From the NCBI RefSeq assembly GCF_056712565.1, contig NZ_CM160072.1: a stretch of DNA of 64,000 nucleotides. One strand, 5' to 3'. Of the stretch, positions 28,593 through 52,925 are shown piece after piece. Below the pieces are notes generated by a model. It was not told where the DNA came from, made no database searches, and saw only the letters and a list, made by a program, of their open reading frames with translations. Each line of letters opens with the position of its first letter. Position 1 is the first letter of the stretch. A program made the position numbers and the translations under genes.

Positions 28593-29040
28593 GTGTAACT
28601 ACCTTAATCATGGTAAACGACCAAATTTGATGTCGTTAACCTAACATGGCGATTTTTTTAATGGACTGAGGATGTTTGTGCAGGTGAAGGATTATTTTGC
28701 GGTATTGTTTTGCCTTGAGCAAAAAAGTCCTTTTCTAGGAAATACCTAAAATCTGATACAGTCAAACTCAATATTTATTGTCAGAGAATGAATAAAAGCG
28801 GGGTGTTTTTTTGCCACTGCACTGCTTCAGGAATGTATTCACCCCTCATAAAGGCTTCAATGACTCTCCGCCATGGCAAACATGCCATAGGGGGAGATTT
28901 TCAGATAATGATAATAATGTTCGCCCACATCCGATTGTAAATGGATCAGAAAAATGGCCGCGTATTGCCCTGCTGAATGTGGATTACGTCACCTGTTTTG
29001 AATTGCCTTTCTGCTTACCCGGACACCACAACTGATTGCT

Positions 29041-29442
29041 GTGCTGCGTGAAGAATGGGACATCAGCCAGAAAAATGTGGTGTTCAACGATAAACGCTTT
29101 GGCTGCGTGTACAGCCTGAAGGCCAGTCTTTCCAGTGTGCCGGATACATACCGGTATCATCTGTCTCACCGTATTCGTCGCGTGGTTGGGAATGAAAACA
29201 CATCATTGCCATATCAGCAGGTTGCCCGGGAAGTGAAAGCGCCCCGTGAACGGCTGAAGTATGCGCTGGAGGCGGGGTTACTGGTGACCGCACTGGACGG
29301 CCTGTTCTGGTCTGGCAGTCAGCGTATTGCGGCTGATGTCCTGAGACTAAGACAGAGCGGAATGCCGGTGGTGACAACGACCGTGGAGGTGCACGATAAC
29401 CTGACGGGAACAACCCGCAAAATACCGGCATACCATCTCTGA
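29041..29442 (+). CDS. Hypothetical protein; possibly the 3' part of a frameshifted gene beginning in ORF 28811..29035
   Basis: ORF only; no motif recognised. Confidence 0.25.
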   Translation: MLREEWDISQKNVVFNDKRFGCVYSLKASLSSVPDTYRYHLSHRIRRVVGNENTSLPYQQVAREVKAPRERLKYALEAGLLVTALDGLFWSGSQRIAADVLRLRQSGMPVVTTTVEVHDNLTGTTRKIPAYHL

Positions 29443-29537
29443 TACAACCATCAGGGGGAATATTGCTCTGGCAGCAGCAGTACGACATTCTTTATACTTT
29501 ATCCCCGTGCCTGAAAACATGTGCTAAGGAAACGGGA

Positions 29538-29771
29538 ATGGCAAGGTCCGATTACGATATTATCAATCTGTCTCTGGAACATGAACTGAATGAGTGGCTG
29601 GCAGAGAGAGGTTATGCCGGACTGGCGTATAACCGGAACCGGGTGGTAGAGGTGGTTACCCGCAAATTGCAGGACAGCTTTTATATCAACGTTTCCTGGG
29701 ATGCGCTGAACACGGCATACAATGAACACCCGGAGTGGTTTTCAGGGTTTGTCTCCGGGGATGAGAATTAA
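29538..29771 (+). CDS. Small hypothetical protein
   Basis: ORF only. Confidence 0.2.
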   Translation: MARSDYDIINLSLEHELNEWLAERGYAGLAYNRNRVVEVVTRKLQDSFYINVSWDALNTAYNEHPEWFSGFVSGDEN

Positions 29772-30607
29772 TAAGTGGATTATGCTGCCATCAGGCAGTG
29801 TGATTGCCGGCAGGGATTTCGTTTTATTCTGTTTCTTCCCGGGGGTCGGGTTTGAATTTTCCCAGAAAGTTGTACATCGGTCGCATACAGGGATGCGGAT
29901 AACCCTCCCGCATAAAAACCACTCGGGTTTCTTCGACGCTGGTTACGGTGGCCAGTGCTCCATGATCGTCTTTGTATCGCTGATTGACTTTCGGTAATGG
30001 AACATCTTCTGACATAAATTTTAGTACGGTAACAGTTAACTAAATTTTCATGTGGTAGCACTGAATCAGGAGACTGCGTTTCCTGATGTGCGCTGTTAAT
30101 TTTCTGTTTTTACGAAACATTTTCCCCTTCTTCCTGTGTATTTTATTGCGCTCCTCTTTTCATGTCCTTCCCATATCCTGAAACTCACTTAAATGCTGTT
30201 GAATCGTCACGCATTGCAATTTTCAATGACTGAAATCAAAAATTGCTATTTTTTAAGCTAACCAACTGTATTAAAAGCATTCAGTGGAATAATTTTCTGC
30301 ACTTTTCCATTAATTATGGTTATAAATTTTGTAATGTGCTGTTTTTGCGATATTAGTCAGAATAAAGAACTGTTCATTTGTATTATATTGATCGATAAAT
30401 CTGCCATATTGCTGTAGTTCAGATCATTATTCTATAATGATCAAAATTAAGTCAGCTAAAAATTGGCAGATTTATTACTCAGCATTCTGGTACCGGTTGA
30501 TGTGGGTAAATACCGGAAAGGCGGTAGCGTGCCATTGCAAAAAATGGTGGGAGGTATCGTCAGGAGGCTGGTAATTGTTGGTATGGCATGAATAAAAGGT
30601 TTTTCGT

Positions 30608-31045
30608 TTGACTGGAAAATTATGTTGCAGGAACGTGAGGGCTGAGGAACAAAGCGTATTCCGGCGCTGTCCGTCCTTGCTGTCACTGACACTGATGTCT
30701 GCTTTATTATCGCCTTTATCTCTTCAGGCAGCGGATGTCCGGCGTAGCGGAGATGAAGCATTTATCATTCAGCAGCAGCGTCAGGAAGCCCTTGAGCAAC
30801 AACTGATGCCTTCAGCCCCTGATGTTCGCCTTTCTGCACCTGGCTCTTTTGCACGTAAGATTAATTTTCCTGTTGAAACGCCCTGTTTTCAGATTAAACA
30901 GACGGAACTGGAGGGGGCTGATGCGTTACCACACTGGCTGCCTTTACAAAAAATCGCCAACGGGGCGGTCGGGCACTGTCTGGGGGCGAAAGGAATTAAT
31001 CTGCTGATGAGTACATTGCAGAACCGTCTGGTCGATCATGGTTAA
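30608..31045 (+). pseudogene. N-terminal fragment of a two-partner-secretion outer-membrane transporter (TpsB/ShlB/CdiB-like)
   Basis: Signal-peptide-like start then POTRA-region resemblance ([16 protein letters not shown]...[12 protein letters not shown]); only 145 of the expected ~550 aa. Confidence 0.4.
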
Positions 31046-31116
31046 CCCTTTCCGGTCAGCAGATAACGCGACTGACAGAATTACCCCCGGCATATAACCT
31101 GCAGCGCAGTGCGCAG

Positions 31117-31515
31117 TTGCTGCAGCAACTGATGGTACTTTTCCCCGACAATCCCCATGTTCAGGAAATGGTGGATAACTGGCAGAAGAGCGTAAGGAGT
31201 CGTGCGCTCCCGGAAGAGGCGATGACGGGCTGGAATGAAGGCATGACCCGCTTACAGCAGCTGGCTGAACGCCTGAACCGTCTGGATGAACAGCGGGGAA
31301 AATACATGACGGTCAGTGAACTGAGAACGGAGGTGTTTGGCATCATGCAGGCCTTTAACCGGCATATCCCGGCGGAAGAGCAGTTACGTCGCTATGATGA
31401 AGCCCGTAACCAGAATGGCAGTGAACAGCAGCAAAAACAGGCTGAAATGGCACTGAATCAGCTGATTAATCGTTATCAGGTGGAACACGCTGGCAAACCG
31501 GAGAGGCAGCCATGA
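31117..31515 (+). CDS. Hypothetical protein or gene fragment
   Basis: ORF only; Gln/Glu/Arg-rich. Confidence 0.2.
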   Translation: MLQQLMVLFPDNPHVQEMVDNWQKSVRSRALPEEAMTGWNEGMTRLQQLAERLNRLDEQRGKYMTVSELRTEVFGIMQAFNRHIPAEEQLRRYDEARNQNGSEQQQKQAEMALNQLINRYQVEHAGKPERQP

Positions 31516-31753
31516 TGGCTGATAAAACATGGTAATGGAAAATAAACCCAAAAGAATGCGCACACCATGGGCAATCGAAGATATTCGCTACCTTGAAACG
31601 CATTATGGCGTGAAAAAAAACGCGAAATAGCGGCATATTGCCATGGGAGGGGATATGTCTGTCAGGCTGACTTGTTTTTCTCTTAAATAGCCTTTATTTA
31701 AATTAGCCTTGGTATGAAATTAGAATCTATTAATTTTTATCAAAGGAGATTGT

Positions 31754-33190
31754 GTGACAATAGCAAGAGATTCTGTTAGTGGTGAAATTGTTCATGGTCA
31801 TGATCTTCGGGAAATGGATGATCTTTATATACGAACAACCACTTTTGAATGCCCGTATGACAAATGTAGGATACCCGCTACTCCATGTAGCTTCAAAGAA
31901 ATAAATTTAAATCAATCATACTTTCGATATAAAGAGACTCATAGGCCGGGATGTAATATTCATGATCCTAAGAGTAAAAATAAGTGTAACTCAAAGAATA
32001 ATAAAAAGCATAATTCACCACCGGCATTAGCTATATCTCTTCTGAAACTTGATGTGTCTGAAAGAAATTACGACTCTTCTGGCAGAAGAATTATCAAACA
32101 GACGCGAAATGATGAAAAAGATTTGGGAGGTAAAGTACACCCTGTGTCATCTTCAAGCATCAAACCGGTAGTAGACTACTACATTAATGGAGATAATCTC
32201 TATGAACCATTATCAATTCCCCCTTATGGAGTTAGAACTTATAAAGATACTTTTCAACTAATCATCTATAAAGAAGGAATTAGATATAATAAGCCAGCAA
32301 TTTATTTTGGTAAAATTCAATCTAATATACGGCTGGAGATAAATTCGAATAGATATTACCTTACTTTTTTAGCCAGAAAGAAAGGTACCAAACAAGCATA
32401 TAAACTTGAAATTGATGCTTCAGAATGGGATGAAAGTAAAAAGAGTTTTTTCTGTAGTGAGTATGAAAAACAAAGAGCAGAAGCAAATAAGTATTATAAT
32501 GGACTAAAAGACAAGCGCAAAGCAACCAAATATCTTAATATTTTCTTTTTTGGTTTTCCTGATGAGTGCGATAGTTTTTTATTTAAGACTAGTTGTTTTA
32601 AATTGATTTATATCGTTTTCTTAGATGATTTTGATGTGACTTATAATGACAAAAACTACAGCATAGAAAAAGAACAGCTAATTAGAGATGAAATTAACAA
32701 AGAACATTTGACAGATCATCAAAATAGAATAAACCTTGCTGAGGTTGCTGAGGTTGCTGAGGTTGCTGAGGTTGCTGAGGTTGCTGAGGTTGCTGAGGTT
32801 GCTGAGGTTGCTGAGGTTGCTGAGGTTGCTGAGGTTGCTGAGGTTGCTGAGGTTGCTGAGGTTGCTGAGGTTGCTGAGGTTGCTGAGGTTGCTGAGGTTG
32901 CTGAGGTTGCTGAGGTTGCTGAGGTTGCTGAGGTTGCTGAGGTTGCTGAGGTTGCTGAGGTTGCTGAGGTTGCTGAGGTTGCTGAGGTTGCTGAGGTTGC
33001 TGAGGTTGCTGAGGTTGCTGAGGTTGCTGAGGTTGCTGAGGTTGCTGAGGTTGCTGAGGTTGCTGAGGTTGCTGAGGTTGCTGAGGTTGCTGAGGTTGCT
33101 GATTTTGACAAGAGCGAATTTAACCCTTCGGATTCTGATAGGAAAATATGGACTGGGATAAGAAAGCTTATTTCATTCTTTAAAAAATAG
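31754..33190 (+). CDS. Hypothetical AT-rich protein with a Cys/His-containing N-terminal region and a C-terminal (Ala-Glu-Val)x40 tract
   Basis: GTG start preceded by AAAGGAGA; 478 aa ORF; the in-frame 9-bp repeat encodes AEV 40 times. Confidence 0.6.
   Translation: MTIARDSVSGEIVHGHDLREMDDLYIRTTTFECPYDKCRIPATPCSFKEINLNQSYFRYKETHRPGCNIHDPKSKNKCNSKNNKKHNSPPALAISLLKLDVSERNYDSSGRRIIKQTRNDEKDLGGKVHPVSSSSIKPVVDYYINGDNLYEPLSIPPYGVRTYKDTFQLIIYKEGIRYNKPAIYFGKIQSNIRLEINSNRYYLTFLARKKGTKQAYKLEIDASEWDESKKSFFCSEYEKQRAEANKYYNGLKDKRKATKYLNIFFFGFPDECDSFLFKTSCFKLIYIVFLDDFDVTYNDKNYSIEKEQLIRDEINKEHLTDHQNRINLAEVAEVAEVAEVAEVAEVAEVAEVAEVAEVAEVAEVAEVAEVAEVAEVAEVAEVAEVAEVAEVAEVAEVAEVAEVAEVAEVAEVAEVAEVAEVAEVAEVAEVAEVAEVAEVAEVAEVAEVADFDKSEFNPSDSDRKIWTGIRKLISFFKK
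32738..33097 (+). repeat. Perfect tandem repeat, 40 copies of GCTGAGGTT (360 bp)
   Basis: Read directly: unit starts at 32738 and repeats without a single mismatch to 33097, then a partial GCT. Confidence 0.95.
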
Positions 33191-33221
33191 ATCTATAGCA
33201 GTCATCATATTGGATTATTGG

Positions 33222-33257
33222 TGAAGTGGTACACTGAATTTGCCCACCTGAACAGAG
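33222..33257 (+). mobile_element. Solo IS911/IS3-family terminal inverted repeat (IS scar)
   Basis: TGAAGTGGTACACTGAATTTGCCCACCTGAACAGAG differs at only ~2 positions from the terminal repeat of the intact IS911 at 41881..41914. Confidence 0.5.
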
Positions 33258-33321
33258 TTGGTTTTATCAAACTTGTAGTTTACTCAATGACGTAAAAATT
33301 GGTGATGTAAAGGATATAAAA

Positions 33322-35106
33322 ATGTGGTCAGACAAAGAGTCATCAGAAGACTACCTAAATTTTGGTGAAGTATCTCAGTTAGCCGTGGATGTACTTACCA
33401 CGAAAGATATGTTACCAGTATCTATCGGAATTTTTGGAAACTGGGGGGCAGGTAAATCCTCTCTGTTAAAACTGATAGAGCAAAAACTTGAGCAAGACGA
33501 CAAAGATTGGATTGTTATCAATTTTGACTCTTGGCTCTATCAGGGGTACGACGACACCCGTGCCGCACTTCTTGAAGTCATCGCTACAGAATTGACAAAA
33601 GCTGCTGAAGGTAATTCAGCCCTTATATCAAAAACTAAGAGACTCCTTAGTCGAGTTGATGGTTTTAGAGCTATGGGATTACTAGCTGAGGGTACAGCTT
33701 TAATGGCAGGATTACCTACTGGCGGTTTGCTTTCTAGGGGGATTGGTGCATTAAGAAATATCACCGATGGCATCCAGAGCCAGGAAGAGTATGAGGCTTT
33801 AGGCAATATAGCTAAAGAAGGTAAAGAAACTGCTTGTGGTTTGATTAAACCACAAACAAAAAAAAGCCCCCCTCAGCAGATTGATGCCTTTCGTAAGGAA
33901 TATGGGGAAATTCTAGAAGAACTTGGAAAGCCACTCATTGTGGTAATAGATAACCTAGACCGCTGTCTCCCTGCCAATGCTATCCATACACTTGAAGCTA
34001 TCAGGCTATTCCTTTTCTTGACTAATACAGCCTTTATTATTGCAGCAGATGAGGACATGATTCGCTCTTCTGTGGCTGATTACTTCAAAGGGGCATCACA
34101 GCGCCATCAAATAGATTATCTGGATAAGCTAATCCAGGTTCCTATTCGGGTGCCTAAGGCTGGGGTCCGTGAGATCCGTTCGTATCTGTTCATGCTTTAT
34201 GCCATTGAACATGGCTTAGAAGGCGAAAAAATAACTATGCTCCGTGAGGGCTTAGAGAAGGCGTTACAGCAATCCTGGAAAGATGAACCAATCTCACGTC
34301 AGGAGGCCTTAAAAATGACTGGTGAAGCGGATGATAGCAACCTCGCGCTGGCGTTTGCGCGTGCTGACCGTATTGCTCCCATTTTAGCCAACTCTCCAAT
34401 TATTCATGGTAATCCCAGGATCGTTAAACGCTTGTTGAATGTTGTGAAAATGCGATCTCAAATTGCGAAGCGACGAGCAATGCCTTTGGATGAAGCAATT
34501 ATTACTAAGCTAGTAATTTTTGAACGCTGTGTTGGAGTGGATGGCACCGCTGATTTATATCATCTCGTGGATATTGAACAAGGTGTTCCCCAGATACTTA
34601 AACAGCTTGACGATAATGGCGGTCAAATACCTACTGATGCACCAAAGACATGGACTGATAGTCCAACGACTAAATCTTTCATCAGTCAATGGGCCCAACT
34701 TGAACCTCGTCTTGGTGGGATTGACTTAAGGGCCGCCATATATCTGTCCCGAGAAACTATGCCAATAGGTGCATATGTGGTTGGTTTATCGCCATCTGGA
34801 CGGGAAGTACTAAATGCACTAATTGAATTGAAAAACACTAGTTCTCCTACAGCAGAAAACCTTTTGAAAGCACTTCCTCGTGAGGAGCAAATACCTGTAA
34901 TGGAAGGTTTAATTAACCAGTTACGGCAGGTATCAGATTGGGATCGTAAGCCCAGAGGCTTTTCCGGTGCATGTCTGTTGGCCCGCTACTCAACAGATGC
35001 AGCCAGCATATTAATTCGTTATCTACAGGAATTACAGTTGGGGATGAAACGACCAGCGTGGATGACTGCAGCATTAAAAGATGAACAATGGAATAAGGAC
35101 GCTTAA
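33322..35106 (+). CDS. qatA: KAP-family P-loop NTPase (QatA-like)
   Basis: Walker A GNWGAGKSS followed by the KAP-characteristic INFDSWLY block; 594 aa. Confidence 0.8.
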   Translation: MWSDKESSEDYLNFGEVSQLAVDVLTTKDMLPVSIGIFGNWGAGKSSLLKLIEQKLEQDDKDWIVINFDSWLYQGYDDTRAALLEVIATELTKAAEGNSALISKTKRLLSRVDGFRAMGLLAEGTALMAGLPTGGLLSRGIGALRNITDGIQSQEEYEALGNIAKEGKETACGLIKPQTKKSPPQQIDAFRKEYGEILEELGKPLIVVIDNLDRCLPANAIHTLEAIRLFLFLTNTAFIIAADEDMIRSSVADYFKGASQRHQIDYLDKLIQVPIRVPKAGVREIRSYLFMLYAIEHGLEGEKITMLREGLEKALQQSWKDEPISRQEALKMTGEADDSNLALAFARADRIAPILANSPIIHGNPRIVKRLLNVVKMRSQIAKRRAMPLDEAIITKLVIFERCVGVDGTADLYHLVDIEQGVPQILKQLDDNGGQIPTDAPKTWTDSPTTKSFISQWAQLEPRLGGIDLRAAIYLSRETMPIGAYVVGLSPSGREVLNALIELKNTSSPTAENLLKALPREEQIPVMEGLINQLRQVSDWDRKPRGFSGACLLARYSTDAASILIRYLQELQLGMKRPAWMTAALKDEQWNKDA

Positions 35107-35858
35107 TGGGAACATCACAATCAAGTAAAGGTCCAGGAGGTGGCTCTCCGCTGGTTCCACCATGGGCTGATGATCAGCCACAGCAACCGTTACCCTCGCC
35201 GCAAGAAAGGAGGTTTGCGCCATTTCGAGAATCGTTGGGAAATGCGGTATCAAATGGAAATCGAGCAGATTTCAGAAAAGCCATAGGGCACTACGCGCGA
35301 AAAGCCTCCGGAGGGAGCAGTAACGCTGCTCGGCGATTAGGGAGTGTCACGCAAGCTGGGGCCGAATTATTTGGGGCTTTAGTGGGAATGCCTTCGGCTC
35401 CCGGAGAACCAAGCATCGATTTGGGCAGTTTGGCAGGCCTTCCATGCGAAATAGCAATATCAACTATTGCTCAAGCTTTAACATCACAGGATGGTGACTC
35501 AGAAAAGATCTGTGCGGCCATGAACCATGCTTTAGTGGAGGCTCTTGATGGCGTAGAAATTTTCGATCCTCAAAAAATAACTGATGGTGTGATTGTTGAC
35601 ACAATGATTGGTTATCTAGCGGAAAGTATTTTCCTTCAGATGGTAATGGATTCTAATAGGGCATGGAACAAAGCAGATACACCTTCAAAGGCAATTCATG
35701 CAGAAATTGAACTCCGGGAATTGATTAAAGTTGTTGTTGATAAACATATGGCACCAAAACTTGCCGGTAACATAAGATCGTTCACACGAAACCAAATGGT
35801 AAAAATTGAACGTCAGGCCATTATTGAGGCCTGGCAAGAATGGGAGGCATACCAGTGA
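35106..35858 (+). CDS. qatB: Protein of unknown function (QatB-like position), Gly/Pro-rich N-terminus
   Basis: Start overlaps the qatA stop (TAATG); no motif recognised; call rests on operon position. Confidence 0.55.
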   Translation: MGTSQSSKGPGGGSPLVPPWADDQPQQPLPSPQERRFAPFRESLGNAVSNGNRADFRKAIGHYARKASGGSSNAARRLGSVTQAGAELFGALVGMPSAPGEPSIDLGSLAGLPCEIAISTIAQALTSQDGDSEKICAAMNHALVEALDGVEIFDPQKITDGVIVDTMIGYLAESIFLQMVMDSNRAWNKADTPSKAIHAEIELRELIKVVVDKHMAPKLAGNIRSFTRNQMVKIERQAIIEAWQEWEAYQ

Positions 35859-37159
35859 CACAATTAGTTTTCCATCATAAACATCACCATTTGCCGCCAG
35901 CAAGTGAGAAAGTGTTACCTGTTCAGCTATATGGATTAAGTGGTCAGAGGCGCGGAGATATATCTGTTATCGGGAATCCTGCGATTGATCGGATCAGACG
36001 TTTGGGAGTACAGCTTCCAGCTAAGGTCATGGATTTTCTGAGTGTTGCATTAGCAGTAACTGCAGCAGATACTTTCGTTCAGCGTGAAAGTTCCGAGGAT
36101 GGTTGGACCCGCCAATTGTCGTTACGACTCCCCCTTCATGAACCATCCAGATGGATTAGTCTAAAGAAAGAACTTGAGAGTGCTTTGCATTTTCTTAGTG
36201 GAGACATCTGGGATTTCGAATTTTGTGACGATGGTTATGCACCGCCAGAGCCTTATAGCCAGCATTCAAGGCATCGTCTGATTAAGCTAAAAGGGCTTGA
36301 CTGTGTCAGCTTATTTTCAGGAGGTCTGGATTCAGCTATTGGTGCAATAGATCTTCTGGCTGCAGGGCGCGCTCCACTTTTGGTTAGTCATGCTTATAAG
36401 GGGGACAAGTCTCGTCAAGATCAGATCGCTGAAAAATTAAGTGGCCAATTTTCGCGCTTTGAGATTAATGCTGACCCACACATTTATCAAGGCGTGACTG
36501 ATATTACGATGCGAACTCGTAGCCTCAATTTTCTTGCCTTTGCGGCCGTAGGTGCTTGTGCCGTACAAGAGATATCTCAACAAGAAAAGATTGATTTGTT
36601 CGTACCTGAAAATGGATTTATCTCATTAAATGCACCACTTACTCCACGGCGGATAGGTTCGCTGAGCACACGAACAACACATCCACATTTTATTACGAGC
36701 ATACAAAAGATCTTTGATGCGCTCGGTATTTCTTGTCAAATAATCAATCCATATCAGTTTAAGACAAAAGGAAAAATGATCTCCGAATGTTCAAATAAGC
36801 AGCTCTTATCTAAAATTGTGGAAAGTACAGTATCCTGCAGTCATTGGAAACGAATGGGGCAGCAATGTGGGGTATGTATACCGTGTATCATTCGACGAGC
36901 ATCACTTCATGCAGGGGGAATTAGTAGAGATGTTGAATATATTTTCCAGTCCTTAGCTAAAGTAATGAATGAAATAGATCGCAGGGACGACCTGATCGCC
37001 CTTAGGATTGCGATCACGCAGAAATCGACTTTGAAAATAGGTACATGGATTGCCAAAAGTGGCCCTTTGCCTACGGCAGAATTTGATAATTTCAAGCAAG
37101 TATTTAAGGATGGCCTAGATGAGGTTGAAAGCTATTTACTGAGTGAGAACATAGTATGA
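35840..37159 (+). CDS. qatC: QueC-like PP-loop ATPase (QatC-like)
   Basis: PP-loop SGGLDS (LFSGGLDSAIGAIDLL) in a 439 aa protein larger than housekeeping QueC; overlaps both neighbours. Confidence 0.8.
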   Translation: MGGIPVTQLVFHHKHHHLPPASEKVLPVQLYGLSGQRRGDISVIGNPAIDRIRRLGVQLPAKVMDFLSVALAVTAADTFVQRESSEDGWTRQLSLRLPLHEPSRWISLKKELESALHFLSGDIWDFEFCDDGYAPPEPYSQHSRHRLIKLKGLDCVSLFSGGLDSAIGAIDLLAAGRAPLLVSHAYKGDKSRQDQIAEKLSGQFSRFEINADPHIYQGVTDITMRTRSLNFLAFAAVGACAVQEISQQEKIDLFVPENGFISLNAPLTPRRIGSLSTRTTHPHFITSIQKIFDALGISCQIINPYQFKTKGKMISECSNKQLLSKIVESTVSCSHWKRMGQQCGVCIPCIIRRASLHAGGISRDVEYIFQSLAKVMNEIDRRDDLIALRIAITQKSTLKIGTWIAKSGPLPTAEFDNFKQVFKDGLDEVESYLLSENIV

Positions 37160-37881
37160 GCATCGATATGCACTGTCATCTAGACTTATATCCTCGGCCA
37201 GACCTCGTGGCTGAAGAAAGTAAGCGTCGAGGGACTTATATTCTGTCGGTGACAACAACACCTAAAGCATGGCATGGTACTTCTTTATTGGCTAAAGAAA
37301 GTCAACGAATCCGAACTGCTCTTGGGCTACATCCTCAAATCGCGCATCAAAGATCGCATGAGTTAGACCTGTTTGATTCATTGCTTTCGGAAACTAAGTA
37401 TGTAGGGGAAATAGGGCTTGATGGTGGACAGGGATTTAAAGAACATTGGGATATTCAATTGAAAGTGTTCCGACACATTCTCAACAGTGTAAATCGGGCT
37501 GGTGGCAAGATTATGACTATCCATAGTCGGGGAAGTGCATCAGCGGTGCTTGATGAGATTGAAAATATCGATGGGGTGGCAATATTGCATTGGTTCACTG
37601 GAACACCTAAGCAGCTTGAAAGGGCAATTGATTTAGGATGCTGGTTCTCAGTGGGGCCTGCTATGCTCGATACAATAAAGGGTAAGGCCTTAGTTTTGAA
37701 AATACCCAAATCACGCATTCTTACAGAAACAGATGGGCCATTTGCTAAGTTTCGTAATGACCCACTAATGCCATGGGATAGTGGGATTGCAGAGAAACAG
37801 TTAGCCGCATTATGGGGGATTAGTCAGATGGAGGTTAATGCTCAGCTAGTTGATAATTTTAAGGTATTATGTACATCATAA
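37156..37881 (+). CDS. qatD: TatD-family metal-dependent nuclease (QatD-like)
   Basis: N-terminal HCHLD motif and downstream His/Asp/Glu pattern of the TatD TIM-barrel hydrolase; ATGA overlap with qatC. Confidence 0.85.
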   Translation: MSIDMHCHLDLYPRPDLVAEESKRRGTYILSVTTTPKAWHGTSLLAKESQRIRTALGLHPQIAHQRSHELDLFDSLLSETKYVGEIGLDGGQGFKEHWDIQLKVFRHILNSVNRAGGKIMTIHSRGSASAVLDEIENIDGVAILHWFTGTPKQLERAIDLGCWFSVGPAMLDTIKGKALVLKIPKSRILTETDGPFAKFRNDPLMPWDSGIAEKQLAALWGISQMEVNAQLVDNFKVLCTS

Positions 37882-38433
37882 GAATGAAAAACTTAGATAT
37901 GCATTTACAGTTCAATTCATTTTTCGTCATCAGTTAATTACACATAAAATTAAAAGTAAGAATATATCTACCCTGTGAATGAGTAAGGCGGATTTATATA
38001 GTTTGTAATTAGTTTAAATGTAAGCAGTTCGTCAGAGTGCGTATTCCGCTCTATTCGATCACGGATTGGCCGTTATGACCCGATCTCGATGGAAGTTATT
38101 GGGTGATCCCCTTCCATGAAAATATGCACCGAAGCTCCCGCAGAGGTTTCCGTGGGCGAAGGCATGATTCTGTCCGAGAGCCGGATGTGTTAGAAGCGCA
38201 TGTCCGCTTCGATGAGCGGGGTGTGGAAACAGGATTTATGGTCAGGACAGTAAGGCACCGCCAATCGAAAGAGGCGGCAACAGATATGCCTGACCTGTAA
38301 AATTACCGCGCCACATCTTGACTCTACCCGTTTTCCAAGCGCCCCCCCTTATAGAACGTACACTGGATGGTGATACCGGCTATACATCGCATATTTGACA
38401 GTCAGCTTGCTGAATTTTTCATTGGCTGCAGCA

Positions 38434-39009
38434 TCAGGGCGTTTTCCAGATGACAGCTATAGTAAAAATGATCGCCAGACTGGCGAGAAAGCAGAGCGAA
38501 AGCGGGATTTTGTCCTTCAGTGTCAGGTTCAGCTCTTCTTCAACCCATGCTTTTTCAAATTCACAGTAAAATTTATAATGTGCGTACCAGTTACTTCCGA
38601 AGATCTGTTTGCTGATGACCGTGCCGTAAAACCGGGACATGATAGCGTCGATGGATTGTTGTGTACGCTGATAGTCAAAGTTTGCATCGCTTTTTACGTT
38701 GCGGTAGATGACTTCAAGTTCATTAAAAATTTTGGTCTGCTCAATCCCCGCACTTTCATAACTCTGCTTTTCCGAGTCATAAAACTGAATGTACATTGTA
38801 GCAACACCAAATATAATTAATATCGCGGAAATGACGTTTGTGGCCAGCTCAGGAATAAAAAGGGCGAACACACCGACAGCAAGAGAAATAAAGCTAATCC
38901 AACCGGATGCCTTACAAATCAGATCATAGGTGGCAAAGTTTTTCTTAGCGCCAAATCCAACGTTATAACCATGTCGGGCGATTAATTTCAGCATCTCTGA
39001 TTGCGTCAT
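38434..39009 (-). CDS. SLATT-like two-transmembrane effector protein
   Basis: 191 aa with two central hydrophobic helices (WISFISLAVGVFALFIPELATNVISAILIIFGVATMYI) and a C-terminal hydrophobic segment; 8 nt downstream of the SMODS gene. Confidence 0.6.
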   Translation of the reverse strand: MTQSEMLKLIARHGYNVGFGAKKNFATYDLICKASGWISFISLAVGVFALFIPELATNVISAILIIFGVATMYIQFYDSEKQSYESAGIEQTKIFNELEVIYRNVKSDANFDYQRTQQSIDAIMSRFYGTVISKQIFGSNWYAHYKFYCEFEKAWVEEELNLTLKDKIPLSLCFLASLAIIFTIAVIWKTP

Positions 39010-39016
39010 AAAAACC

Positions 39017-40345
39017 TCAGCTTATGGGAACTTCAATCTGGGCCCGGGCAACCACAACCTCATTTTTTATCACATAGCATTCTACCATGTGATCTCCGCG
39101 GAAGTCGGTAGTTTCTTTCTTCGTACAGTAGCCGCCGTCCGAAACGATTTGTCCCCGGATCATATTTCTTCTGCGTGCTTCGTCACCCACGTTCAGTACC
39201 TTCCACATAACGGTGTAGGGTTCCTCTGCCTCCATTTCTGTCAAGTCTGCCCGGAAAAGGAGAGATTTTCGAGCGGAGAGGCGGAATCTTCTGATAAGCA
39301 TCTCCCTCAGGCTTCTGGGAGGGAAACCATCCTGGGTTACGGTACAGTCAAGGTTGAGTGAGTACCTGATATCCACCGGATATTTATCCTCTATAAACTC
39401 TTCGGTATCGGTCCAGGGAACAGCATCTGCCGCATGCGATTCCAGACCAAGACGGGCTTCCATAATACCCACTTTACGTCTGGGGAAGGCTCGTCCGAAC
39501 ACTTTGCGCCAGCGGTCATTTTCACTGGCAGCCCCCTCAGCGTCTAAGGCATCACAACATAATTCATACGCGTGTTTCGCTGCCCGGCCAAACCAGGGAG
39601 ATTTAACACGTACATGCTGATTACTGCCTAACGCGAGATACCTTTCCTTTCTCTCCTCATTTGACAGATATTCAAAAAAGTCTCTGGCGAGGGCTCCCAG
39701 GCTGCCATTTCCGGTATTGTCATAATCTGATGTTGATGAAAGAAAGCGATACGCTAGTGTGTCTATCAGTAAGCCACCCATATTGACGCCATGCAGGTTC
39801 TTCCAGGCTCTGATCATTTTACACAGCTTGCGCAGATTATTGGATTTATCTCGCGAAAATGCGGTCATGGCCGCCTTTTCGTGAAGAGGTTTTGTAATGC
39901 GCCATGCTCCTCCATTATAGCTTTCAGGGAATTTAAAGCTGTCATCATCCTGTCTGAATACAGGTTGAACCTCGACATAAAAGTTTTTAAAGATGATCTG
40001 AACAACCAGTCTGTCCTTTTTCACAGTCTGGTCAGGATATTCTTCCGCCAGAATGTTTCTGACATCTGTAAGCAATGCAGACTGACCATTATCCTTACGG
40101 TTATAATATTCATACTGATTGGGGGGCATAATATAAAGCATATCCAGATCGGATATGCCTTTTATTGCGGTATGTCTGCCTACTGACCCCACTTTCAAGC
40201 GGTTTGCTACCCGGGAACTCGTTCCTCTGAACGCAAGATTTAATGACTTGGTTATTTTTCGATAGTGATAGCTGATCTTTTTTGCCTGTTTGAGGTCAAG
40301 ATTCAAATTTTCAAGAAATTCGCTGAACAATTCCCTGTGGCTCAT
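39017..40345 (-). CDS. SMODS-type (cGAS/DncV-like superfamily) nucleotidyltransferase with C-terminal sensor-like domain
   Basis: Pol-beta NTase motif GS-x10-DLD (GSVGRHTAIKGISDLDMLYI) in a 442 aa protein. Confidence 0.75.
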   Translation of the reverse strand: MSHRELFSEFLENLNLDLKQAKKISYHYRKITKSLNLAFRGTSSRVANRLKVGSVGRHTAIKGISDLDMLYIMPPNQYEYYNRKDNGQSALLTDVRNILAEEYPDQTVKKDRLVVQIIFKNFYVEVQPVFRQDDDSFKFPESYNGGAWRITKPLHEKAAMTAFSRDKSNNLRKLCKMIRAWKNLHGVNMGGLLIDTLAYRFLSSTSDYDNTGNGSLGALARDFFEYLSNEERKERYLALGSNQHVRVKSPWFGRAAKHAYELCCDALDAEGAASENDRWRKVFGRAFPRRKVGIMEARLGLESHAADAVPWTDTEEFIEDKYPVDIRYSLNLDCTVTQDGFPPRSLREMLIRRFRLSARKSLLFRADLTEMEAEEPYTVMWKVLNVGDEARRRNMIRGQIVSDGGYCTKKETTDFRGDHMVECYVIKNEVVVARAQIEVPIS

Positions 40346-40479
40346 GGTGTTTCCTTTGGCATGTGAAACATTAGCTTACATTATCATTACACCTTATAAA
40401 AACCAAGATCTTGGGAGGTGAGCGTTCTGCATGGCTTTATGACTTAAACGTAAGCGTTAACGGAGTGCCGTATTGACGC

Positions 40480-40665
40480 TTATTTATTGGTGAGTACTAC
40501 GTTCCATGGCAGGAGTTCGTCAACTCGGTTGGAAGGCCATTCCGGCAGTACGCTCAGGATATGGCTCAGATACGCTTCCGGATCGATATCGTTCAGTCGG
40601 CAGGTGCCGATCAGCCCGTACAACAGTGCTCCTCGCTCGCCGCCGTGATCGCTGCCGAAGAACAT
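40480..40665 (-). mobile_element. IS66-family transposase (TnpC) C-terminal relic
   Basis: YLSHILSVLPEWPSNRVDELLPWN is the conserved IS66 transposase C-terminus; only ~60 codons present. Confidence 0.6.
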
Positions 40666-40685
40666 AATGAATCGCCACGGATAAT

Positions 40686-41498
40686 CTAGACACTTCCGAG
40701 CCGTTGATAATACTGGTTTTCATATTCTGTCGGTGACATCTGTTCGCTAGAACCATGCCGACGCTTACTGTTATAAAACATTTCGATGTAATCAAAAATA
40801 TCACTGCGGGCTTCTTCCCGCATTCCGTAGATCTTTTTCTTTATCCGTTCACGTTTCAACAACTGGAAAAAACTTTCTGCAACCGCATTATCATGGCAGT
40901 TACCGCGACGGCTCATGCTACCCTCCAGGCCGTGTGATTTCAGGAACGACTGCCACTCATGGCTTGTGTACTGACTGCCCTGATCCGAATGAACCAGCAC
41001 CTGTTTTTCGGGATTACGCCGCCATACAGCCATCAGCAGTGCGTTCAGGACAATGTCCTTTGTCATCCGGGATTGCATGGACCAGCCGATAATTTTGCGT
41101 GAGAACAGATCAACAACAACGGCAAGATACAGCCAGCCTTCGTGGGTCCTGATGTAGGTTATGTCCGTTACCCAACGCTCATCAGGAGCATCCGGATTGA
41201 ACTGTCGCTGGAGCCTGTTGGGTGACATGATACTGGCCTCGCCTTTACGTGCCCGCGGGCTTCGGTATCCGACCTGAGCCTTTATTCCGACACGTTTCAT
41301 CAGTCTCCAGACTCTGTTTACTCCGCACTGTTGCCCGCTGTCACGCAGATCCAGATGGATTTTGCGATAACCATAGACGCATCCCGATTCCAGCCAGAAC
41401 TGTTTAATCTGTCCTGTCAGTCTCAGGTCTGCCTGATGGCGTTGTGAATGCGGCTGCTGAAGCCAGGCGTAAAAACCACTGGGATGAACATCCAGCAC
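40686..41498 (-). CDS. IS911 OrfB (DDE integrase/transposase catalytic subunit)
   Basis: IS3-family rve domain with DDE context (WVTDITYIRTHEGWLYLAVVVDLFSRKIIGW ... HSDQGSQYTS ... CHDNAVAESFF). Confidence 0.85.
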   Translation of the reverse strand: MLDVHPSGFYAWLQQPHSQRHQADLRLTGQIKQFWLESGCVYGYRKIHLDLRDSGQQCGVNRVWRLMKRVGIKAQVGYRSPRARKGEASIMSPNRLQRQFNPDAPDERWVTDITYIRTHEGWLYLAVVVDLFSRKIIGWSMQSRMTKDIVLNALLMAVWRRNPEKQVLVHSDQGSQYTSHEWQSFLKSHGLEGSMSRRGNCHDNAVAESFFQLLKRERIKKKIYGMREEARSDIFDYIEMFYNSKRRHGSSEQMSPTEYENQYYQRLGSV

Positions 41499-41554
41499 CC
41501 GACAGAGCAGGCGAACAGGCCAGCAACAGGTGTTGTCACGGATAAAGGCGTACC

Positions 41555-41842
41555 TCAGTCGGACAGCTTTGCGAAGTACGCCGCCTTTTTTAATATTTCA
41601 TTCTCCATTTCAATGCGTTGTAGCTTTTTCCTCAGCTTACGTATTTCGATTTGTTCTGGTGTTATCGGAGAGGCTTTTGGTGTTTTGCCCTGACGCTCAT
41701 CACGCAGTTGTTTGACCCATCTTGTCATTGTGGAAAGGCCAACATCCATAGCTTTGGCGGCATCTGCCACCGTGTATTTCTGGTCAACAACCAGTTGAGC
41801 GGATTCGCGTTTAAACTCTGCGCTAAAATTTCTTTTTTTCAT
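41555..41842 (-). CDS. IS911 OrfA (HTH transposase subunit)
   Basis: [46 protein letters not shown]. Confidence 0.85.
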
Positions 41843-41911
41843 TGGAGCACCTGTGTTGTTCTGAGGTGAGCATATCACCTCTGTTCAGGTGGCCAAATTC
41901 AGTGTGCCACT

Positions 41912-42289
41912 TCAAGCCGGGAGCGGCGTCAGCCAGTCTCCCTTTACCCGCGCTTTTTCGGAAAGCCCACCCCAATGTTTTTCTCCTACACCCCAGCCGG
42001 TCAGCAGGACCTTATCCCCGGTCTGATATTCAGGATGTGAGCTGGCGGACACTGTACCGGCAAAATCAATGCCTGGCACCATTGGAAAGTGCCGGACGAT
42101 AGGCCCGCGGCCCGTAATAGCCAGTGCGTCTTTGTAGTTGATAGATGAACAGTCGACATTGACCTCCACATCCCCCTGTGGCAGCTCGCTTTCAGCGATT
42201 TCAGCAATTTGGGCACTGTGGCGACCATACATCTTACTGATTAATAAGGATTTAAACATTTTTTTCTCGTCTTTCTGGTTTGATGTCAT
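41912..42289 (-). pseudogene. N-terminal ~115 codons of a YhdH/AcuI-like zinc-independent MDR oxidoreductase, truncated exactly at the IS911 end
   Basis: [42 protein letters not shown]...[26 protein letters not shown] matches the YhdH N-terminus; reading frame runs into the IS911 terminal repeat. Confidence 0.65.
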
Positions 42290-42862
42290 TGAGCTATAAA
42301 GTAGTCAATAAACAATATTGACCGATCGTCTAATAATCAACGCTGATATCCCAGTGTTTGTCAGAAAACAAGAATTGCTTTTCTTTTCATCAGGTTAAAT
42401 CTATCTTTTTTGATTTATATCAAACCAGATTCGGTCTTCAATTATATAGGCATCAATGTTAGCGGTCCTACAAGATACGCAGTCGATGCTTCAGGGCGTA
42501 CTGATGAAATAAAACAAGTAGGCTGAGATTAGTTGGTCTGCTCATCGCTCACAGCGGACCTTCAGCTTCGTTAGCCAAGCGCTGACATAGTTACCGATGT
42601 AGCGTGTTAATCTGTCGGGAGCATAGCCGAAATCACTTAACCCATTAGACTTCACCTAAAACTGCAAAAATTACCGTCTTTGTCACACTCACCGAGTTTA
42701 ATCAAACTAACACTGTACATAGTGCGAACAAGAGCCAACCAGAAAGACTGTTCAGCATCAACAGTGAAGTTTTTCCCCGCTACTTCCCCGCAATTCTTCC
42801 GCAGTTTTCCCACTAGAGAGTTCGACACATCCCTTGCATACCAACGCTTTGATTCAAATCTC

Positions 42863-49427: not shown

Positions 49428-50195
49428 GGTAATGCTGCCAACTTACTGATTTAGTGTATGATGGTGATTTTAAGGTGCTTGCGTGGCTTCCATTTCCATC
49501 AGATGTCCTTCCTGCTCCGCTACTGAAGGCGTGGTGCGTAACGGCAAAAGCACTGCCGGACATCAGCGCTATCTCTGCTCTCATTGCCGTAAAACATGGC
49601 AACTGCAGTTCACTTACACCGCTTCTCAACCCGGTACGCACCAGAAAATCATTGATATGGCCATGAATGGCGTTGGATGCCGGGCAACTGCCCGCATTAT
49701 GGGCGTTGGCCTCAACACGATTTTACGTCACTTAAAAAACTCAGGCCGCAGTCGGTAACCTCGCGCATACAGCCGGGCAGTGACGTCATCGTCTGCGCGG
49801 AAATGGGCGAACAGTGGGGCTATGTCGGGGCTAAATCGCGCCAGCGCTGGCTGTTTTACGCGTATGACAGGCTCCGGAAGACGGTTGTTGCGCACGTATT
49901 CGGTGAACGCACTATGGCGACGCTGGGGCGTCTTATGAGCCTGCTGTCACCCTTTGACGTGGTGATATGGATGACGGATGGCTGGCCGCTGTATGAATCC
50001 CGCCTGAAGGGAAAGCTGCACGTAATCAGCAAGCGATATACGCAGCGAATTGAGCGGCATAACCTGAATCTGAGGCAGCACCTGGCACGGCTGGGACGGA
50101 AGTCGCTGTCGTTCTCAAAATCGGTGGAGCTGCATGACAAAGTCATCGGGCATTATCTGAACATAAAACACTATCAATAAGTTGGAGTCATTACC
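49428..50195 (+). mobile_element. IS1, complete 768 bp copy (insA 49483..49758, insB 49677..50180)
   Basis: Canonical InsA ([21 protein letters not shown]...) and InsB; terminal repeats GGTAATGCTGCCAACTTACTGAT... and ...GTTGGAGTCATTACC. Confidence 0.9.
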
Positions 50196-51198: not shown

Positions 51199-51364
51199 CA
51201 GTCATCCGGTAAACATCGACTTTCCACTACAATTTATTCCTACCTGATTTCTGTATGACAGAGTAGTCCCGACAGGCAGACGGATAAATTCCCGCAGGTA
51301 AAAGAACATAAATGCTGGCTGCTGACAAGTCTGTGAAAAAGGATTATTGTAGTGGTTCACAAAA

Positions 51365-52171
51365 TCAGGACACCGGAATAACCTGTTTCCACTTTTCTTC
51401 ATGTAAGCAAGGCGGTAAACCATCGTTGTTCGTGTGAGGTCGATAAACGTTGTAATAACCATTAATCCACTGGTTTATATCACGTACCGCATGGATAAAA
51501 TCACCATAACCACCTTTCGGAAGCCATTCATTTTTAAGGCTGCGAAAGACTCTTTCCATCGGCGAATTATCCAGGCCATTCCCTCTGCAACTCATACTTT
51601 GCATTACCCCATAACGCCAGAGTAACTTTCTGTATTTATTGCTTTTATACTGAACACCTTGATCTGAATGAAACAGCAGACGGCCATCACGTGATCGTGT
51701 TTCCAGTGCATTACGCAAAGCCCTACACACCAACTCAGCATCAGCGGTTAATGAGAGGGCTGAACCGGTAATCCGCCGTGAATATAAATCAACAACGAGC
51801 GCGAGCTAACACCATTTGTCATGCAGGCGAATAAAACTGATGTCGCCGCACCAGACGCGGTCTGGTGCGGCGGGGTGAAATTGCCGGTTCAGTAAATTTG
51901 GCAATGGCGGACTTTTGTCTTCGTTGACCCGGTAGTGATGTTTAACCATCTGTCGACTTGTCAGCCCGCATTCCCGCATCAGTCGTCGTGCCAGCCACCG
52001 GCCTGCATCAACGCTACTCTGGCGCAACATCTGACTGATTGCACGGCTACCGGCTGCGCCACGACTGAGAGCATGGAAAGCCCTCACCCGACTTCGTAAG
52101 TCAATTCTTTGCACATTAACAGGACGCGTCACCTGCGCGTAATAAACGCTACGGTTAGGTAATGACTCCAA
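51365..52171 (-). pseudogene. IS3-family transposase OrfB relic, frameshifted and truncated by the adjacent IS1
   Basis: Two ORFs (51806..52171 HTH region; 51365..51733 rve C-terminus [10 protein letters not shown]...) in different frames; upstream ORF abuts the IS1 end. Confidence 0.65.
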
Positions 52172-52925
52172 CTTATTGATAGTGTTTTATGTTCAGATAA
52201 TGCCCGATGACTTTGTCATGCAGCTCCACCGATTTTGAGAACGACAGCGACTTCCGTCCCAGCCGTGCCAGGTGCTGCCTCAGATTCAGGTTATGCCGCT
52301 CAATTCGCTGCGTATATCGCTTGCTGATTACGTGCAGCTTTCCCTTCAGGCGGGATTCATACAGCGGCCAGCCATCCGTCATCCATATCACCACGTCAAA
52401 GGGTGACAGCAGGCTCATAAGACGCCCCAGCGTCGCCATAGTGCGTTCACCGAATACGTGCGCAACAACCGTCTTCCGGAGCCTGTCATACGCGTAAAAC
52501 AGCCAGCGCTGGCGCGATTTAGCCCCGACATAGCCCCACTGTTCGCCCATTTCCGCGCAGACGATGACGTCACTGCCCGGCTGTATGCGCGAGGTTACCG
52601 ACTGCGGCCTGAGTTTTTTAAGTGACGTAAAATCGTGTTGAGGCCAACGCCCATAATGCGGGCAGTTGCCCGGCATCCAACGCCATTCATGGCCATATCA
52701 ATGATTTTCTGGTGCGTACCGGGTTGAGAAGCGGTGTAAGTGAACTGCAGTTGCCATGTTTTACGGCAATGAGAGCAGAGATAGCGCTGATGTCCGGCAG
52801 TGCTTTTGCCGTTACGCACCACGCCTTCAGTAGCGGAGCAGGAAGGACATCTGATGGAAATGGAAGCCACGCAAGCACCTTAAAATCACCATCATACACT
52901 AAATCAGTAAGTTGGCAGCATCACC
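52157..52925 (-). mobile_element. IS1, second canonical copy, inverted relative to 49428..50195 (insA 52595..52870, insB 52173..52676)
   Basis: InsA/InsB proteins identical to the first copy; ends read to within ~2 bp. Confidence 0.9.

Follow-up and report, generated by a model that had tools for sequence, protein, structure and literature searches.

Two ends resembling those of the insertion sequence IS911 bracket a pair of anti-phage systems in an E. coli tRNA-Phe (pheU/pheV) genomic island with a P4-type integrase, and the locus raises the question whether the 8.7-kb interval between them (33222-41914) moves as a unit. The window, a stretch of 64,000 nt, is from NCBI RefSeq GCF_056712565.1, contig NZ_CM160072.1, and all coordinates are window positions (Table 1). 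An initial annotation had read the locus as a solo terminal repeat on the left and an intact IS911 beside an IS66 relic on the right, with a Qat operon and a SMODS-SLATT pair between them that might move as a block.

Table 1. Features in and around the interval between the two IS911-type ends (window positions).
Feature	Position	Strand	Remarks
Orphan IS911-type left inverted repeat (IRL)	33222..33257	+	outer tip toward island backbone, inner side toward qatA
50-bp spacer between solo IRL and Qat cassette	33258..33307	.	not IS911; not common to any other-species Qat locus
QatABCD cassette	33308..37881	+	PADLOC and NCBIfam; limits by DNA homology to 19 other-species loci and Xenorhabdus IncC plasmid
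qatA	33322-35106	+	
qatB	35106-35858	+	
qatC	35840-37159	+	
qatD	37156-37881	+	
Group II intron 3'-end fragment	38129..~38330	+	plasmid intron homology; right limit approximate
Type I CBASS module	38345..40449	-	PADLOC; plasmid homologues
SLATT/2TM effector of CBASS	38434-39009	-	
CBASS oligonucleotide cyclase	39017-40345	-	
IS66-family relic	40450..40667	-	terminal end GTAAGCG... at 40450; transposase C-terminal remnant 40480-40665; cut at 40667 by hybrid IS
Hybrid IS, whole	40668..41914	-	1247 bp
Hybrid IS, right two-thirds	40668..41582	-	orfB and right end TGAATCGCCACGG... of a non-IS911 IS3-family element, 'X'
Hybrid IS, left third	41583..41914	-	IS911 IRL (41879-41914) and orfA up to the A6G frameshift motif
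yhdH/acuI-like reductase gene, N-terminal fragment cut by IS	41915..42289	-	NCBIfam profile; PGAP

The left-hand repeat (TGAAGTGGTACACTGAATTTGCCCACCTGAACAGAG, plus strand) matched the IRL of the right-hand element (41879-41914, minus strand) at 34 of 36 positions. The match reported in the initial annotation was thus real, and of the limits given there for the right-hand IRL (41881..41914) the outer one held whereas the inner one moved to 41879. A chance origin was ruled out, since 100 dinucleotide shuffles yielded no match to the 36-bp IRL at three or fewer mismatches. The IRL of the right-hand element is identical (36/36) to that of K-12 IS911B, so the solo repeat also matches IS911B at 34/36. 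With its 36 bp, its 5'-TG start and its near-identity to the IS911 IRL, the solo copy fits an IS911-type terminal repeat, for which an IR length of 36 bp is published (PMC2909936). It carries T9/C22 where the canonical repeat has C9/G22. The second change, G22C, turns the subterminal, transposase-binding block TGGCCACC, common to IRL and IRR, into TGCCCACC; this GGCCACC block is described as shared by both IS911 ends (PMC2909936). The solo IRL is a real but orphaned IS911-family left end, an old scar.

Three other origins of the left-hand repeat were rejected. The initial annotation had allowed that the 36 bp could belong to a longer, unrelated conserved sequence; the similarity to IS911 stopped after position 36 and so covered exactly the IR, and the Qat loci of other species lack such a sequence. 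An IS3-family relic end at 51348 was considered as the missing IS911 half but did not resemble IS911 at the nucleotide level. The layout of a mobile insertion cassette (IRL-Qat-IRR) was also discarded, as no IRL- or IRR-like sequence was present from qatD to the CBASS module (best score 19/36).

The right-hand element turned out to be a hybrid and not the intact IS911 that had been annotated. Canonical IS911 is a 1250-bp member of the IS3 family with 36-bp IRs, producing OrfA and OrfAB via a -1 frameshift. The right-hand element has the IRL, orfA and A6G frameshift motif of IS911, and the solo repeat likewise is an IS911-type IRL; in contrast, its orfB and IRR come from another IS3-family lineage. 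Nucleotides 1-332 were 99% identical to K-12 IS911B, 98% to the canonical IS911 of strain CU42ET-1 and 90% to K-12 IS911A, and past nucleotide 332 there was no nucleotide match to IS911 of CU42ET-1 or K-12. The hybrid orfB shared ~41% amino-acid identity with OrfB of the same two strains. Its right end (TGAATCGCCACGGATAATC...) agreed with the published IS911 IRR (TGAAGTGGTCAACAAAAACTGGCCACCGAGTTAGAG; PMC2909936 Table 1) at 15/36 positions and with the element's own IRL at 18/36. A natural copy of X in W12-1 carries its own matching IRL and orfA. The flanks of the hybrid (TAA vs AGC) show no 3-4-bp target-site duplication, a further difference from canonical IS911. The hybrid retains an intact, frameshifted transposase frame, with an IS911-type N-terminal DNA-binding part. 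The hybrid is single-copy. The full-length form was found in 197 of 5,426 E. coli genomes, with this junction in 189, and is essentially confined to this locus.

The cargo consists of more modules than the initial annotation had listed. Qat and the SMODS-SLATT pair were both in place, but the interval also holds the 3' fragment of a group II intron. QatABCD was complete, with four genes qatA-D in order (PADLOC: QatA E = 0, QatB 8.6e-131, QatC 1.8e-140, QatD 5.8e-97), and QatC and QatD also scored above their NCBIfam cut-offs. Qat occurred without CBASS in 19 other species and on a Xenorhabdus IncC plasmid, where its neighbours are genes for a Tn3-family transposase and a recombinase. Homology to these cassettes was confined to 33308-37881, the start varying from 33308 to 33323 among the other-species loci, and at none of the 19 loci was Qat paired with CBASS or accompanied by an IS911-like end. 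The second system combines a CD-NTase-type cyclase (PADLOC Cyclase, E = 1.8e-176) with a transmembrane effector (2TM Effector, E = 2.7e-82; NCBIfam SLATT_6, 223 bits) without ancillary genes, and is thus a type I CBASS. This module was 96.6-98.4% identical to IncX1 and IncF plasmids without Qat. The intron fragment comprises the last ~39 nt of ltrA, domain V (38178-38211) and downstream sequence; it was 95% identical to the 3' end of a Buttiauxella plasmid intron that contains ltrA, and ~79% identical to introns of rhizobia and Burkholderia. The Rfam match to domain V was weak (E = 4.1 with the fragment scanned alone), and a scan of 33000-42500 gave no match at E <= 0.01.

The IS66 transposase fragment and the truncated yhdH-like gene on either side of the right-hand IS were present as annotated. 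The former corresponds to positions 348-385 of 387 of NCBIfam transpos_IS66. Matches to ISEc23/IS682 began at 40449-40450, and the terminal end at 40450 is the exact stop of homology to the CBASS-bearing plasmids. The yhdH-like fragment encodes only ~113 N-terminal residues out of 324 (positions 1-114 of ~325 in the NCBIfam AcuI/YhdH profile) and carries the PGAP label 'incomplete, missing C-terminus'. The data support the view that all junctions between modules are ends or scars of mobile elements: the solo IRL at 33222, the intron fragment at 38129, the IS66 end at 40450, and the hybrid IS that links the IS66 relic to the unrelated yhdH-like fragment. They likewise support the part of the initial annotation that had IS-mediated rearrangement shaping the locus.

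Comparison with sister islands showed that the two ends differ in age and origin. STEC388, which carries a pheV island, was colinear with window positions 28947-40667 at 99.8%, across an identical solo IRL, and the solo IRL is therefore no boundary of the common segment. Homology stopped at 40667; STEC388 has no IS at 40668, and its IS66 relic is ~256 bp longer. The CBASS cyclase gene adjoins an uninterrupted, longer IS66 relic, again without an IS at 40668, in 59 E. coli genomes; within this set, the solo IRL and the whole block were confirmed in STEC388, and four further genomes carry Qat (at least 99.7%). The uninterrupted junction in the 59 genomes, together with the solo IRL and whole block of STEC388, identifies the right-hand IS as the later arrival, and the absence of the additional IS66 sequence from the window marks the arrangement seen there as derived. 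Additional IS911-family events are seen at the left edge in sister genomes. In CU42ET-1, the one genome seen with a full IS911 at the solo-IR site, a canonical element with OrfA/OrfB lies in the same orientation, and qat is cut down to a 72-bp qatA relic downstream of it. The IRR of this copy (TGTAGTGGTCAACAAAAACTGG...) resembles the published IS911 IRR by eye, not scored in register. In FCI55, an IS911-family copy truncates qatA and the solo IRL is removed.

It is likely that the locus as a whole combines an orphan IS911 scar, a later hybrid IS and a patchwork islet riding with the whole island. An IS911-family element would once have lain downstream of the island's repeat-rich hypothetical gene, with 33222-33257 as its left end. 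We infer that its body was then lost in a manner that left the Qat cassette 50 bp past the repeat. The solo scar predates the right-hand IS, the two reflecting separate events; the identities of the parts, the sequence of events at the right end and the occurrence of the modules on their own are shown by the comparisons above. The Qat cassette, group II intron remnant, type I CBASS and IS66 end were probably acquired separately, and the islet would spread only as a passenger of the tRNA-Phe (pheU/pheV) island. Such a history shows how a small defence islet is assembled in extraintestinal pathogenic E. coli (S88, APEC O1, CFT073 and the type strain), with two independently circulating anti-phage modules stitched at mobile-element scars inside a tRNA-Phe island. 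As to the left edge itself, the similarity breaks off precisely where the 36-bp repeat ends on its inner side, a neat stopping point for a deletion of random extent. An intermediate with backbone, full IS911 and intact Qat was not found.

A route to the hybrid is suggested by CFT073, in which both hybrid halves are present but split by an IS30 (...GGCTAC/IS30/GCGGCG...). One flank is IS911-type and the other X-type, without duplication; elsewhere, IS30 is bordered by duplications of AC (K-12 IS911A::IS30) or GT (W12-1 X::IS30). The K-12 copies IS911A::IS30A and IS911B::IS30D carry IS30 at a hot spot inside IS911, and the CFT073 IS30 sits at exactly that position. Unlike the K-12 cases, its flanks derive from two different IS elements, and the window has no IS30, the halves being fused in frame. 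The left third of IS911 and the right two-thirds of X would thus have been joined at the frameshift region, which is also the IS30 hot spot, most probably by recombination between IS30 copies in an IS911 within the yhdH-like gene and in an X within the IS66 relic, with the IS30 lost afterwards. The same event would have deleted the intervening DNA and linked the defence islet to a 13-kb segment on the right. A direct crossover between IS911 and X at a short common motif may be an alternative. The hybrid and the IS30-bearing form of CFT073 clearly illustrate how recombination between IS elements has remodelled an island in nature. CFT073 is the one intermediate-like arrangement on which the IS30 route rests.

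A different order of events at the left edge, which we consider unlikely, is that the solo IRL came first and served as a magnet for IS911-family elements, the IS911 of CU42ET-1 being a re-insertion at the orphan end and not its ancestor. IR-targeted IS911 insertion reportedly requires RecG (Loot et al. 2002/2004). Insertion of IS911 targeted next to IS911 ends is documented, as cited in PMC7986276. The CU42ET-1 element would suit such an event in that it starts 2 bp off the solo-IR tip, has canonical C9/G22 instead of T9/C22 and lacks a target duplication (ATT/GAA). However, the site has a single IR instead of a target IR together with an IS end, and one such genome was seen; a kept ancestral copy with small changes explains it equally well, and any orphan end presupposes an earlier full IS in the same place. 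The junctions read ATTATT/TGTAG in CU42ET-1 and ATTATTGG/TGAAG in the window. With this 2-bp offset and the difference at IR position 3, the CU42ET-1 IS911 may be a separate, possibly IR-targeted, insertion and not a kept ancestor.

Returning to the scar-and-passenger history, we found no support for the claim that the 8.7-kb interval moves, or once moved, as a unit. It is very improbable that 33222-41914 forms a compound-transposon-like unit in which an IS911-type transposase, of the hybrid IS or of other copies, moves Qat and CBASS as a block. The two IRLs are indeed inverted relative to each other with their outer tips outward (33222, plus strand; 41914, minus strand), as in a compound transposon, the hybrid has the transposase frame described above, and its IRL is closer to the solo IRL than to its own right end. 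Against this, the interval is flanked by TGG/AGC (3 bp) and TTGG/AGCC (4 bp), and thus by no target-site duplication; the right-hand IS is missing from the 59 genomes with an uninterrupted IS66 relic, while STEC388 has the same block and synteny that crosses the solo IRL; and the solo IRL bears G22C inside the GGCCACC block. The different contexts that the initial annotation suggested looking for did not appear either: among 5,426 complete E. coli genomes, essentially all copies of the block followed the same left junction (235 to 242 vs 238 genomes), with the rearranged FCI55 as the one exception seen; 72,556 plasmids did not yield it as a unit, and the Qat loci of the 19 other species showed no Qat-CBASS pairing. 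The features of a compound transposon that were absent are a flanking duplication, a second context and both arms wherever the cargo occurs. Tn10, Tn5 and Tn9 likewise have passenger genes bracketed by two inverted IS-type ends, but here one arm is a bare 36-bp end, the other is a hybrid IS whose ends do not match each other, and many islands that have this cargo lack the right arm. A transposable unit would need two IRLs arranged as they are here. If these IRLs were a working pair for an IS911-type transposase, by which the Qat/CBASS segment might occasionally be circularised and reinserted elsewhere, the locus would be a defence-gene transposon made of one IS and a stray end; we give this very little credence. 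The locus thus cautions that a pair of IS ends around defence genes need not be a transposon.

It is scarcely probable that the orphan IRL was retained for promoter or regulatory input to the qat operon. The repeat does sit 65-100 bp ahead of the qatA start codon and does not vary between islands of the pheU and pheV types, and the IS911 IRL holds a portion of pIRL, a promoter that has been mapped to the left end of IS911 (PMC2909936, Fig. 1 legend). Against this, no sigma-70 consensus match occurred anywhere in 33100-33400, the IS-internal part of pIRL is gone, the Qat cassettes of 19 other species have unrelated upstream DNA, and with the whole block near-identical (99.8%) the conservation of the IRL is no signal of selection.

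The locus is ordinary island mosaicism and leaves the current understanding of IS biology and phage defence unchanged. The tRNA-Phe islands have been described as gene modules with insertion sequences between them (PMC11537424), and likewise here the modules (grp microcompartment, T6SS relics, Qat, CBASS, decarboxylase/antiporter) are split by whole, partial and hybrid IS. In contrast to the IS remnants of such islands, all that remains of an IS911 in this specific case is its 36-bp terminal repeat, and the cargo modules are anti-phage systems and not virulence factors.

The solo IRL, an orphan IS911-type left inverted repeat just upstream of qatA (TGAAGTGGTACACTGAATTTGCCCACCTGAACAGAG), and the left end of the IS on the right-hand side of the defence genes (TGAAGTGGCACACTGAATTTGGCCACCTGAACAGAG) were identical at 34 of 36 positions, with mismatches at positions 9 and 22. 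The two repeats were inverted, with their outer tips pointing outward. No other close copy was present within the window (next best, 23/36), and shuffled sequence gave zero matches at up to 3 mismatches, confirming the near-match described in the initial annotation as real. The similarity of the solo IRL to IS911 stopped past position 36, the published length of IS911 terminal repeats (PMC2909936), rather than continuing as a longer unrelated sequence. PADLOC and NCBIfam searches confirmed QatA–D and a CBASS cyclase with its SLATT/2TM effector, and identified remnants of an IS66 transposase (last 38 residues) and a YhdH/AcuI-type reductase (first ~113 residues). Together with the repeat comparison, they showed that the gene content and coordinates originally assigned were right.

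The right-hand IS had been described as an intact IS911, which held for its IRL and orfA but not for its orfB and right end. Nucleotides 1–332, comprising the IRL and orfA as far as the A6G frameshift motif, shared 99% identity with IS911B of E. coli K-12, 98% with the IS911 copy in strain CU42ET-1 and 90% with K-12 IS911A. From nucleotide 333 onward there was no nucleotide similarity to IS911, and the OrfB proteins shared ~41% amino acid identity. The right end (TGAATCGCCACGGATAATCTAGACAC...) matched the published IS911 IRR (PMC2909936, Table 1) at 15/36 positions and its own IRL at 18/36. The donor of this part was an IS3-family element, here called X, of which strain W12-1 carried a natural copy with its own orfA and a matching left end (TGAATCGCCACGGG...). 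The full-length hybrid was found in 197 of 5,426 genomes and the exact junction of the window in 189; these similar counts indicate a single-locus element, not a spreading IS. Its flanks (TAA and AGC) formed no target duplication.

The frameshift region of both IS911 and X was a recurrent insertion site of IS30. In K-12, IS30 followed ...AAAAAAGGCTAC in both IS911A and IS911B, with the duplication AC in IS911A; in W12-1, it occupied the equivalent site of X with the duplication GT, and in the X of plasmid pCP52E it lay directly against GCGGCGTAC. Strain 042 probably also carries IS30 in this region of IS911 or X. Strain CFT073 had the arrangement X-right/IS30/IS911-left at the same locus as the window (L003 22430–23665). 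Since the IS30 flanks there were X-type (GCGGCG...) and IS911-type (...GGCTAC), belonging to two different IS elements, no duplication was formed. Such an arrangement is expected when two IS30 copies, one inserted in IS911 and the other in X, recombine with each other. The window junction, AAAAAAG-GC-GGCGTAC, equalled the CFT073 arrangement less IS30 and 3 bp, which would then have been lost across the GC microhomology. The hybrid probably arose by this IS30 × IS30 route; a direct crossover between IS911 and X is a possible alternative.

The window was 100% identical to chromosomes of E. coli phylogroup B2, among them ATCC 11775, S88 and APEC O1. In S88, the region lay inside a large island at the tRNA-Phe gene adjoining dicD/dsbD/cutA, which we take to be pheU. 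In gene order, microcompartment genes (grp) were followed by T6SS relics and one hypothetical gene, then by qatABCD and the genes for SLATT and the cyclase. Past these lay the IS66 fragment, the IS3-family element and a truncated gene resembling alcohol dehydrogenase, then cargo bounded by IS1, an integrase and finally tRNA-Phe. The island of strain STEC388 was located at the tRNA-Phe gene adjoining yqgA/speC, presumably pheV. Its colinearity with the window extended over 28947–40667, broken solely by an extra stretch of ~2.4 kb including IS1 at window ~31040, and identity was 99.8% over 32862–40667. Its solo IRL was identical to that of the window, including T9 and C22. The IS66 relic in STEC388 was ~256 bp longer and was followed by other IS fragments, an integrase and the tRNA, with no IS3-family element present. 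The uninterrupted cyclase–IS66 junction occurred in 59 genomes, several of which also carried Qat at ≥99.7% identity. Because the window lacks the extra IS66 sequence of STEC388, its state is derived, and the right-hand IS came later than the block itself. The hybrid thus marks the breakpoint at which shared DNA to its left gives way to about 13 kb of lineage-specific DNA to its right, and is no partner of the solo IRL.

Synteny between pheU-type and pheV-type islands passed across the solo IRL, which is not a boundary of mobility. Among complete E. coli genomes, at least 80% of the block was present in 235, the qat part in 242 and the backbone–IRL–qatA junction in 238; the genomes outside the common junction are rearranged derivatives. 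An IS911-family element must once have inserted at this site. In CU42ET-1, a canonical IS911 (1249 bp) began at the solo-IR site with an offset of 2 bp. Downstream of it came an IS630 fragment, a 72-bp piece of qatA (33735–33806), an IS110 fragment and an IS66 relic. This copy may be the retained ancestor of the solo IRL, as favoured by parsimony and by the single IR at the site, or a later, perhaps IR-targeted, re-insertion, as favoured by its start 2 bp away and by the IR positions at which it differs. Insertion of IS911 targeted to IS911 ends is documented, as cited in PMC7986276. Strain FCI55 carried an IS911-family copy, 89% identical to that of CU42ET-1, with its IRL against qatA at 33561. 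This copy joined the Qat–CBASS block, with qatA truncated at that position, to dpdE/queD (L034 1–4000), part of a Dpd (7-deazaguanine DNA modification) cluster.

Qat and CBASS are two independent modules. In 19 Qat loci of other species (including Citrobacter, Brenneria, Rahnella, Photorhabdus, Shewanella and cyanobacteria), DNA or protein homology was limited to the four qat genes; at none of the 19 did a gene for SLATT or a cyclase lie within 10 kb of Qat, and none showed an IS911-like terminus of ≥26/36. The Qat cassette of a Xenorhabdus IncC plasmid adjoined genes for a Tn3-family transposase and a recombinase. The CBASS pair was 96.6–98.4% identical to Qat-free IncX1/IncF plasmids from E. 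coli, Shigella and Salmonella, and this homology ended precisely at the start of the IS66 end. Between qatD and the CBASS module lay a group II intron fragment (ltrA end, domain V-like hairpin and downstream sequence), which shared 95% identity with an intron on a Buttiauxella plasmid and ~79% with introns of rhizobia and Burkholderia, with only a weak match in Rfam. The AT-rich spacers at the Qat cassette edges matched nothing outside the island except for one 35-bp stretch. The initial annotation had proposed that the 8.7-kb block may move as a unit. This was not supported, given the synteny across the solo IRL, the later arrival of the right-hand IS, the absence of a target duplication flanking 33222–41914 and the independence of the cargo modules. 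As a general idea, IS-mediated rearrangement at the locus is well supported. The layout is that of an ordinary mosaic tRNA-Phe island (PMC11537424), with the hybrid IS as an added detail.

Coordinates of features in and around the Qat–CBASS block
Feature	Position	Strand	Remark
9-nt unit TTGCTGAGG	32736–33102		40.8 perfect tandem copies
Solo IRL	33222–33257	+	
AT-rich spacer	33258–33307		50 bp
qat genes	33308–37881		
AT-rich spacer	37882–38128		about 247 bp
35-bp exact match	38037–38071		on an E. coli plasmid
Group II intron 3'-end fragment	38129 to about 38330		
Domain V-like hairpin	38178–38211		
CBASS pair	38345–40449		
Right-hand IS (hybrid)	40668–41914	−	homology to island without it stops at 40667
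Frameshift region of the hybrid	41575–41595		recurrent IS30 site in other strains
Left end of right-hand IS	41879–41914	−	
Lineage-specific DNA	41915 to about 54700		
Third IS1	near 42.9–43.6 kb		frameshifted
IS1	49428–50195	+	
IS3-family terminal repeat	51348–51383		TGTAGTGGTTCACAAAATCAGGACACC...
IS1	52158–52925	−	

The inverted IS1 pair enclosed a MarR-family gene and a truncated IS3-family transposase relic, whose terminal repeat matched the IS911 IRR at 24/36 positions, with no wider nucleotide similarity of the relic to IS911. The frameshifted IS1 and the 49.4-kb copy flanked an antiporter/Orn/Lys/Arg decarboxylase/antiporter module. Directly upstream of the solo IRL, the tandem array encoded (AEV)n near the C-terminus of a hypothetical protein. 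It looks like a variable-number repeat, since the annotated gene length varied from 1293 to 1626 nt across CFT073, STEC388, S88 and CU42ET-1.
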